DNA of 64,000 nt from positions 11,367 to 75,366 of the forward strand of contig CANRPX010000003.1 in assembly GCA_947632605.1 (NCBI GenBank), given 5' to 3'. This document shows positions 50,847 through 51,388 of the stretch, one piece after another. The notes below the pieces were generated by a model that worked only from the letters and a program-made list of their open reading frames with translations, did not search any database and had not been told where the DNA came from. Numbering within the stretch: the first letter of the stretch is position 1; every line of letters starts with the position of its first letter. Source of the stretch: an uncultured Clostridia bacterium. GTDB lineage: Bacteria > Bacillota > Clostridia > TANB77 > CAG-508. A program made the position numbers and the translations under genes.

Positions 50847-50875
50847 ATAAAAAGTGGTATAATATATGTATTAAT
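50847..50875 (+). promoter_or_regulatory. promoter with extended -10 (TTGCTA-N17-TGgTATAAT) for the GC-rich gene
   Basis: -35 at 50847..50852 and TGgTATAAT ending at 50875. A small hairpin plus T6 in the leader (GGTACA...TGTACC TTTTTT, about 50887..50918) lies before the RBS. Confidence 0.5.
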
Positions 50876-50965
50876 ATTCGTGTGGGTACAGCGAAACATA
50901 AAATGTACCTTTTTTAGTGAGTGTCCTTTGTTTATTTTGAGGGCATGCTAAAAAATGGAGGAAAC

Positions 50966-51340
50966 ATGGACGACACCCGGAGAGTAAAAGCAAGAAAACG
51001 CAGAAGATTTTTTTCCACAGTACGCTATATCTTAGAGTGCATTATTTGTATAATCGGTTTATGCACCATTATCACATTCGCAGGAACCAAGATACTCGGC
51101 TATAACATAGAATTTATCAAATCAGACCTTCCCAACAGTGACCCGAAACCAATGCGTTATAACAGTCCAAACAGCCAGCACTTTATTCTTCAAGAAGACA
51201 ATGCAGAAGATTTTTGGCAAACACTCGAAGAAGTTTCTCTGAATCCTAAGAAGGAAGTAATTTTTTATACCGCTATCCCCTACGAAAAAGATGACGGCAC
51301 TTGGGAAAACTTCTATATTCTCTCGTATGACAACAAGTAA
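50966..51340 (+). CDS. GC-rich (about 42%) 125-aa membrane-anchored protein of unknown function, probable horizontally acquired
   Basis: Start taken at ATG 50966 because a GGAGG RBS lies 5 nt upstream (the track start 50921 is further upstream in frame). Basic N-terminus RRVKARKRRRFF, one TM and an 85-aa soluble domain. Codon usage is unlike the host (CGG, CGC, CCC, CAG). Confidence 0.55.
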   Translation: MDDTRRVKARKRRRFFSTVRYILECIICIIGLCTIITFAGTKILGYNIEFIKSDLPNSDPKPMRYNSPNSQHFILQEDNAEDFWQTLEEVSLNPKKEVIFYTAIPYEKDDGTWENFYILSYDNK

Positions 51341-51347
51341 TCTCCAA

Positions 51348-51388
51348 ACGAGGCAAGGCCATCTGGCCCTGCCTCGTTACTTTTTTTA
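51348..51388 (+). terminator. strong GC-rich rho-independent terminator
   Basis: CGAGGCAAGG-CCATCTGG-CCCTGCCTCG hairpin followed by TTACTTTTTTT. Confidence 0.7.

Follow-up and report, generated by a model that had tools for sequence, protein, structure and literature searches.

Within a 64,000-nucleotide stretch of the genome of an uncultured Clostridia bacterium (contig CANRPX010000003.1, positions 11,367 to 75,366; hereafter the window), the block at 50847–51388 holds a self-contained unit composed of a promoter, a leader, an open reading frame (ORF) and a terminator, and its composition is foreign to its surroundings. The ORF encodes a small membrane protein. The evidence presented here is entirely comparative and derives in large part from short metagenomic contigs. 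Judging from these alignments, deep allelic polymorphism is found in the coding part, between a conserved promoter and leader on one side and a conserved terminator on the other. We consider that the block is probably an autonomous, moron-like chromosomal unit, hereafter the cassette, whose polymorphic membrane-protein alleles are kept or exchanged via its conserved ends.

Members of the family were found at three loci. In the window and on an 801-bp contig from a diverged lineage (L033), the cassette follows tRNA-Thr(CGU) in the same arrangement. The second locus lies between a sipW-like signal peptidase gene and a convergent glmS (L026–L031) and the third between sigH and a convergent lonB-like gene (L037, L043–L051); a convergent gene follows the unit at all three sites. 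Between distinct alleles at these loci the promoter is 71–91% identical, the upstream DNA being unrelated unless the hosts are close, and the leader is 56–89% identical. Nucleotide identity of the coding sequence (CDS) is 51–60% for distinct allele pairs, with the exception of the window and L033 (76%). The window, L033, L026 and L029 have the terminator core AGGCAGrGCC...GGCCCTGCCT in common, L033 carrying one compensatory change. At the glmS site, the sequences of L027 and L029 agree at 94.8% over the 2.9 kb that run to the ATG, and at 91.5% beginning ~20 nt past the stop codon, while their cassette proteins are only 27–36% identical. At the lonB site, the flanks of L049 and L037 are 95.6–95.7% identical and the CDS is unalignable. 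In pairs of these two types the proportion of synonymous differences (pS) reaches 0.78–0.95 in the cassette, versus 0.07–0.21 in the adjacent host genes. Some alleles are mosaics: L043 and L049 differ with a pS of 0.28 in the N-terminal tail and transmembrane (TM) segment and of 0.53 in the ectodomain, and L032 and L043 have the ectodomain in common but not the N-terminus. The number of independent assemblies in which a given allele was seen ranges from one to four. The ratio of non-synonymous to synonymous substitution rates (dN/dS) between alleles is below 1, and the signal is therefore one of old alleles and not of fast protein evolution.

According to the interpretation that we favour, the cassette would have entered the tRNA-Thr site before the split between the window species and the L033 lineage, and would have experienced purifying selection from then on. 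Old alleles would persist, or pass between genomes through homologous recombination in the "arms" that the conserved promoter–leader and terminator provide, and frequency-dependent selection may act on a constitutively expressed surface protein. Several points weigh against it. Recombination at the arms is inferred from the positions of the breakpoints and was not seen directly, and the dN/dS values give no direct evidence of positive selection. The window species shows a single allele, and several of the other alleles are backed only by short metagenomic contigs. No cognate toxin, phage or partner gene lies nearby, no GC-matched donor lineage was found among 15 billion proteins, and no relative came from a GC-matched genome. 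As for the role of the protein, the likeliest would be to exclude a phage or a toxin that targets the envelope, or to make the cell immune to it, though this is a tentative functional guess. Equally speculative is the broader proposal of a new kind of chromosomal "swap cassette", in which promoter, pseudoknot-type leader and terminator would double as portable homology arms allowing recombinase-free exchange between strains or species and landing at new intergenic sites, the 31–50% GC at third codon positions (GC3) of the coding part would be held by nucleotide-level selection against a host mutational bias towards ~10%, and the leader would represent a new class of regulatory RNA.

The alternative that survives best, though we find it rather doubtful, is an ancient gene inherited vertically in the clade, lost from some relatives and moved by rearrangement, whose hypervariability and GC-richness would have arisen in situ through selection acting on protein and mRNA, with no horizontal exchange. 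It would account for the purifying selection seen at a locus common to two lineages, for the fact that all known hosts are related AT-rich Clostridia and for the failure to find an outside donor. However, between genomes of ~95% identity the CDS shows a synonymous divergence 4–10 times as high as the host genes beside it, an excess that faster protein evolution could not produce. The location of the breakpoints, which coincide with the start codon or closely follow the stop, the mosaic alleles and the three unrelated insertion sites also speak against a purely vertical history.

The promoter of the cassette (50835–50863, + strand) consists of a -35 box TTGCTA (50835–50840), a 17-nt spacer containing TTTACATAAA, a TGn extension (50855–50857) and a -10 box TATAAT (50858–50863), in agreement with the extended -10 promoter proposed by the initial annotation; it resembles the sigma-A consensus and is conserved across the family. 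Because promoter-like hexamers occur at chance frequency in the AT-rich DNA of the window (147 found versus 148 expected), it is on this family-wide conservation that the promoter call rests. At the other end, an intrinsic terminator (51347–51387, +) is formed by a 13-pair hairpin with 9 GC pairs (51347–51378) followed by T7 (51381–51387), with a folding energy of -24 kcal/mol (z = -5.8). The terminator-like sites scanned elsewhere in the neighbourhood have 3–6 GC pairs, which bears out the earlier remark that the GC-rich terminator is unlike those of the host. The convergent DUF5050 gene probably uses this terminator as well. A direct repeat of 11 nt, TAGTCTCCAAA / TAATCTCCAAA, occurs at 50823–50833 and 51338–51348 and brackets the unit from promoter to stop codon; it is roughly retained in L033, and L029 has an analogous CCTAC(T/A)TAAA pair. 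It was considered as a target-site duplication and set aside, since 1.1 kb of AT-rich DNA should contain repeats of such size by chance and the bracketed region does not include the conserved terminator. In L037, CTCCAAA precedes the terminator, and UCUCC is complementary to the Shine-Dalgarno sequence (SD). The whole repeat pattern could be due to chance.

The 5' leader of ~95 nt (50871–50965, +) comprises the helices S1, S2 and P3 and the SD. S1 pairs UUCGU (50877–50881) with GCGAA (50891–50895), S2 is a hairpin pairing GGUAC (50885–50889) with GUACC (50905–50909), and P3 pairs 50911–50928 with 50939–50954 and ends just before the SD. The hairpin GGGTAC...GTACC followed by T6 (50910–50915), noted previously in the sequence, is indeed present; its proposed role as an attenuator is unsupported, because the U-run is missing in most alleles (it is absent in L032, L036, L026 and L029) and in the window it pairs with an A-run as the base of P3. 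The same run is polymorphic in length, L003 having T7, which is the sole difference in the 868-bp intergenic region. Since MAFFT misaligned the two leader groups, eight leaders were aligned under the guidance of a covariance model (CM). In this alignment, which was fitted to S2 and P3 and thus biases pair counts toward the modelled helices, 92.3% of the cells pair, versus 73.5% in shuffles (0/500) and 27–44% with slid partners. Changes on both sides were counted at 14 pairs. Both S2 and P3 are conserved and covary, S2 at 5/6 pairs, being entirely replaced by CGGCA/UGCCG in L026 and by CGACA/UGUCG in L029. The whole leader is weakly more stable than shuffles (z = -2.2), so the helices are backed by covariation and not by energy. 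A CM built from five leaders recovered the three held-out ones (L026, L029 and L030) with E-values of 0.006–0.05, and no further convincing copy was detected in the window or in the related loci, where the motif occurs once per locus. No leader from the window and six other loci matched Rfam at E-values up to 1–5.

S1 (UUCGY...GCGAA) can be paired in all cases, varying only between C-G and U-G, and it interleaves with S2, so that an H-type pseudoknot is possible, with S1 itself devoid of covariation. The preQ1-I and SAM-II riboswitches have such an H-type pseudoknot architecture. The leader of the cassette presents the same strand order (S1 5', S2 5', S1 3', A-rich loop, S2 3') and, as in these small leaders, is sited close to the mRNA 5' end; it differs from them by the lack of an Rfam match, of covariation in S1, of an identified expression platform and of a queuosine or S-adenosylmethionine (SAM) gene context. 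One might then regard the leader as the key element, namely a new ligand- or protein-responsive regulatory RNA (a pseudoknot riboswitch or an attenuator), the variability of the protein being secondary. This would agree with a conservation of the leader that far exceeds that of synonymous sites in the CDS behind it, with the covariation of S2 and P3, with a motif found only in cassette leaders and with the interleaving of the invariant UUCGY/GCGAA with S2, which resembles small H-type pseudoknot aptamers, as does the A-rich loop 3. We nonetheless regard it as unlikely: besides the silence of Rfam, conserved expression platforms of the terminator or anti-SD type are lacking, as the U-run is not conserved and the SD is unpaired in the predicted folds, S1 never varies beyond C-G/U-G, loop 3 measures just 4–5 nt in the L026/L029 group, and a hairpin that stabilises the 5' end would account for these data equally.

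The locus of the window was compared with its counterparts in the nearest GTDB genomes, which belong to uncultured gut Clostridia including Candidatus Scatovivens faecipullorum, and whose CYTH protein and ThrRS are ~80% and ~90% identical to those of the window. Exact-protein look-ups retrieved an identical cassette at the same locus in at least seven independent assemblies of the window species. The order SagB-like amidase, DUF5050, tRNA-Thr, CYTH, p77 and thrS is retained in several of the nearest genomes and corresponds to the flanks of the cassette, with CYTH, p77 and thrS on one side and DUF5050 and the amidase on the other. The comparison of related loci that had been suggested to check the insertion yielded an empty site in L014, where tRNA-Thr stands directly next to the DUF5050 gene, ~60 bp apart and with one common terminator. 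At the same spot L015 has an AT-rich gene for 237 aa, L011 and L012 have unrelated genes, and L016 (Ca. Scatovivens faecipullorum; 4183–5560, locus on the - strand) has, after tRNA-Thr(CGU), two other promoter–ORF–terminator units plus a permease. The first of these units encodes a 240-aa ORFan (44.7% GC, GC3 51%) with no Pfam match, and the second a 92-aa coiled-coil-like protein; the spacers of their promoters carry TTTATGTAAA, the reverse complement of the TTTACATAAA of the window cassette. A few kb from the same tRNA-Thr, L011 (2130–3526) also harbours GC-rich ORFs of 88 aa (53% GC) and 137 aa (39% GC), with no Pfam match. As read from these alignments, the spot after tRNA-Thr is variable and the cassette is an insertion relative to L014.

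The copy at the tRNA-Thr site is nevertheless judged to be old. The window and L033 share 89% identity in the promoter, 82% in the leader and 76% in the CDS, whereas ahead of the tRNA promoter their DNA can hardly be aligned at all; their proteins, the closest pair involving the window, are 70% identical, with a dN of 0.165, a dS of 1.28 and a dN/dS of 0.13, pointing to purifying selection. The DNA upstream of the tRNA was uninformative for placing L033 among L011–L017, as it is saturated, with an identity of ~0.62 in all pairs. What had been described as a minimal orphan insertion beside a tRNA is thus an insertion relative to L014, though not a recent one. The sister lineage L033 has the gene at this same locus, which goes some way towards the refuting outcome named at the outset, a gene conserved there across the clade.

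The composition of the block does not contradict this age. With 38.0% GC, it ranks in the top 2.2% of the 542-bp windows of a stretch that averages 25.6% GC, so the compositional island reported previously is real even though the figure given for it, ~42%, was too high. Every allele is GC-rich (36–46% GC, GC3 31–50%) with respect to the rest of its contig (24–33% GC), and this GC3 stays far above the ~10% of the window genes despite more than one substitution per synonymous site. Because all alleles in all AT-rich hosts share this trait, GC content does not date the insertion and cannot be taken as a sign of fresh import; repeated import cannot explain it either, because no GC-matched donor lineage was found.

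Taken together, these comparisons largely refute the reading, built on the initial proposal of a minimal insertion, of a recent remnant of an integrase-mediated genomic island aimed at tRNA-Thr, whose GC content would betray its fresh import; we consider it very improbable. The position downstream of a tRNA, the atypical composition, the absence from L014 and the presence of other foreign-looking units at the same spot in L016 would all fit such a remnant. Yet the block is not immediately 3' of tRNA-Thr, as had been stated: an AT-rich spacer of 106 nt, which holds the tRNA's own terminator hairpin followed by TTTTAT (50785–50812, +; absent in L033), intervenes. As correctly recorded at the outset, there is no integrase between the conserved neighbours at the tRNA-Thr/DUF5050 locus and no direct repeat of the tRNA 3' end, the terminal 23-mer (with up to 3 mismatches) and 13-mer (with up to 1 mismatch) being found nowhere else in the 64 kb. 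The genes called at the three loci include no recombinase, and the contigs bearing the glmS-site and sigH/lonB-site alleles contain no tRNA. Because family members occupy these two tRNA-free core sites, the tRNA is incidental to the placement of the cassette and not an integration target. The age of the copy and the GC-richness universal in the family stand equally against a fresh remnant. The insertion thus took place at a variable intergenic spot without site-specific machinery.

The CDS (50966–51340, +; 38.7% GC, GC3 42%) encodes 124 amino acids plus the stop, one residue fewer than the 125 first assigned, and is preceded by the expected GGAGG ribosome binding site (50957–50961), located 4 nt ahead of the ATG at 50966. 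The plan foreseen for the protein was confirmed: a basic cytoplasmic tail with 8 K/R within residues 5–14, a single predicted TM helix at residues ~17–41 (~51014–51088) and an ectodomain at residues 45–124 (51098–51337), thus of ~80 residues, with conserved GY, NSPNN, EFW and DGTW motifs. It is accordingly predicted to be an N-in/C-out membrane protein with a domain of ~80 aa outside. The AlphaFold2 model, obtained with a shallow alignment, has a predicted local distance difference test (pLDDT) score of 78.7 and consists of a long helix (residues 3–43) and a beta-beta-alpha-beta-beta domain (residues 63–123). Codon usage is extreme, with a GC3 of 42% versus ~10% in host ORFs and at most 16% in genuine ones, and an index akin to the codon adaptation index of 0.33 versus a host mean of 0.76.

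A word-indexed protein search with the single ORF returned no homologue, while an exhaustive HMMER scan of 1.84 billion cluster representatives revealed six relatives and a profile search with the ectodomain four more. At least 11 alleles are now known, which removes the label of orphan. They encode proteins of ~124–126 aa, with one of 151 aa, sharing the basic tail, one TM segment, GY, a linker and the NSPNN/EFW/DGTW domain. The family has no significant match in Pfam, NCBIfam, PADLOC, PHROGs or PDB sequence searches, and no known immunity protein was matched significantly in Pfam, NCBIfam, PADLOC or PDB. It is thus an undescribed protein family, so far encountered only in uncultured gut Clostridia of very high AT content that are related to Candidatus Scatovivens. 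The resemblance to PilN/PilO-type bitopic proteins is at the level of the fold only, with scores typical of generic two-layer alpha/beta folds, and differs in that there is neither sequence similarity nor pilus genes nearby. A membrane anti-sigma factor was also considered and rejected: the cytoplasmic tail of ~16 aa is too short, the match to Sigma_reg_N has an E-value of only 0.1–0.5, and a sigma factor gene (sigH) adjoins the cassette at one of the three loci only, where the unit keeps its own promoter.

The pattern of substitutions and the conservation of motifs, length and TM segment identify the ORF as a genuine protein gene. The alternative of a structured, GC-rich non-coding RNA, or of an assembly artefact, in which the ORF would occur by chance, is refuted: GC-rich islands in AT-rich genomes are often RNAs, as is the RNase P RNA of the window, and the gene caller skipped this ORF in L002 and L003, but the dN/dS is 0.13, close alleles such as L029 and L030 differ by synonymous changes only (pN, its non-synonymous counterpart, 0; pS 0.048), the ORF is intact in all alleles examined, Rfam has no match and the independent assemblies agree exactly. 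The omission from the ENA gene calls concerns L002 (5133–6000) and L003 (5132–6000), where no gene is recorded for the 124-aa ORF despite DNA identical to the window; training on AT-rich genomes seems to make gene finders overlook it, and the family is probably under-represented in protein databases.

Among known systems, the closest named concepts are the phage morons and the orphan-immunity arrays of Bacteroidales, though their defining features are lacking here, as there is no prophage, recombinase or array. Morons are single ORFs with their own promoter and terminator and an atypical composition, located between genes that are adjacent in related genomes (PMC4378225). The cassette likewise has one ORF, its own promoter and a factor-independent terminator, both ends being conserved across alleles, a composition unlike that of its neighbours (38% versus 25.6% GC; GC3 42% versus ~10%), a position between two genes that abut in L014 and, plausibly, constitutive expression for the benefit of the host. 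Unlike morons, it lies among housekeeping genes (thrS, tRNA, the metK region) and not in a prophage, it possesses a conserved structured leader and it recurs at three chromosomal sites with allele replacement. No match to the cassette was found in viral contigs, phage records or PHROGs, nor by BLAST in phage and plasmid collections, and a scan of viral contigs for the promoter pattern gave 0 matches. The 2 matches to this pattern in JGI metagenomes were discarded as chance, being ordinary promoters with no leader.

The orphan immunity genes and rAID-1 arrays of gut Bacteroidales are small, rapidly diverging and GC-skewed, with repeated non-coding sequence before the ORFs, and have been proposed to serve in defence (bioRxiv 10.1101/471110). 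The cassette is comparable as a small, rapidly diverging and GC-skewed accessory gene of gut bacteria with conserved non-coding sequence ahead of the ORF and a proposed defensive role, but it is a single unit and not an array, has no XerD-like recombinase, belongs to Bacillota and not to Bacteroidales, is skewed in the opposite direction (GC-rich, whereas rAID genes are GC-poor) and lacks homology to any known immunity family. With tRNA-linked genomic islands it shares the location downstream of a tRNA, the atypical composition and the presence/absence between species; it departs from them in its size of 0.54 kb, in having neither integrase nor att repeats, in the tRNA terminator that stands in between and in the homologous units at tRNA-free sites. 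An integron gene cassette was discarded on the criteria of an imperfect attC palindrome of at least ~57 bp, RYYYAAC/GTTRRRY cores and no promoter of its own: the sole palindrome is the 32-nt, perfect-type terminator hairpin, the ends are off the core consensus and are not conserved in L026 and L029, and the unit has its own promoter.

Regarding the neighbourhood, tRNA-Thr with anticodon CGU, the left neighbour of the insertion site, was placed beside the block by ARAGORN and Rfam (50665–50740, +), as previously annotated. Its promoter, TTGATT-17-TATAAT (50628–50656, +), is kept in L033 and belongs to the context outside the cassette. The tRNA sequence is identical in L014 and L015. The short-read contigs of the window species all break within this gene (50676–50730), probably since the tRNA is identical in co-resident related species, as it is in these two, and the assembly graph branches there. 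On the right, the gene at 51405–52961 (-) encodes, as first surmised, a DUF5050 membrane protein (LRP1-like beta-propeller), with orthologues in L014–L017. Beyond it, at 53024–54817 (-), lies a gene whose 597-aa product is a SagB-like glucosaminidase containing an SH3_3 domain and ending in a dockerin-like C-terminus; this gene stands beside the DUF5050 gene in relatives too. Known RNAs of the window are the T-box leader upstream of thrS (49085–49286, -), a SAM riboswitch (56227–56334, -) with a metK-like S-adenosylmethionine synthetase gene just downstream, and the class A RNase P RNA (33470–33825, -).

Two more GC-rich units were noticed in the window. The gene at 60230–61645 (-) is a second single-gene island that encodes a 471-aa FAD-dependent oxidoreductase-like protein (Pyr_redox_2, FAD_binding_2, FAD-depend_C); it has ~49% GC and a GC3 of 54%, the composition steps sharply at ~60150–60200 and 61650–61750, and its promoter and terminator are unrelated to those of the cassette. 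The third, at 41702–41914 (-), is a mini-unit with a Cys-rich ORF of 70 aa (47% GC, GC3 52%), its own TTGACA-17-TATTAT promoter (41983–41955) and a terminator made of a hairpin and a T-run. Together, the three units suggest that GC-rich promoter–ORF–terminator units are a recurrent feature of this AT-rich genome.

A variable protein set amid conserved ends in near-identical genomes is a pattern typical of arms-race genes. If our reading of the cassette as an autonomous, exchangeable unit holds, it would represent a gene whose polymorphism, with alleles of very great age, is maintained in gut bacteria that are otherwise near-clonal, whose regulatory DNA is more conserved than the protein it serves and may act as recombination arms, and whose coding sequence withstands a very strong mutational bias towards AT. 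The conserved leader is a candidate for a new cis-regulatory RNA motif. In practice, families missed by gene callers, as this one is, may be under-counted, and searches at the DNA level are needed to recover them. For the organisms themselves, the finding bears on how uncultured gut Clostridia defend or distinguish themselves.

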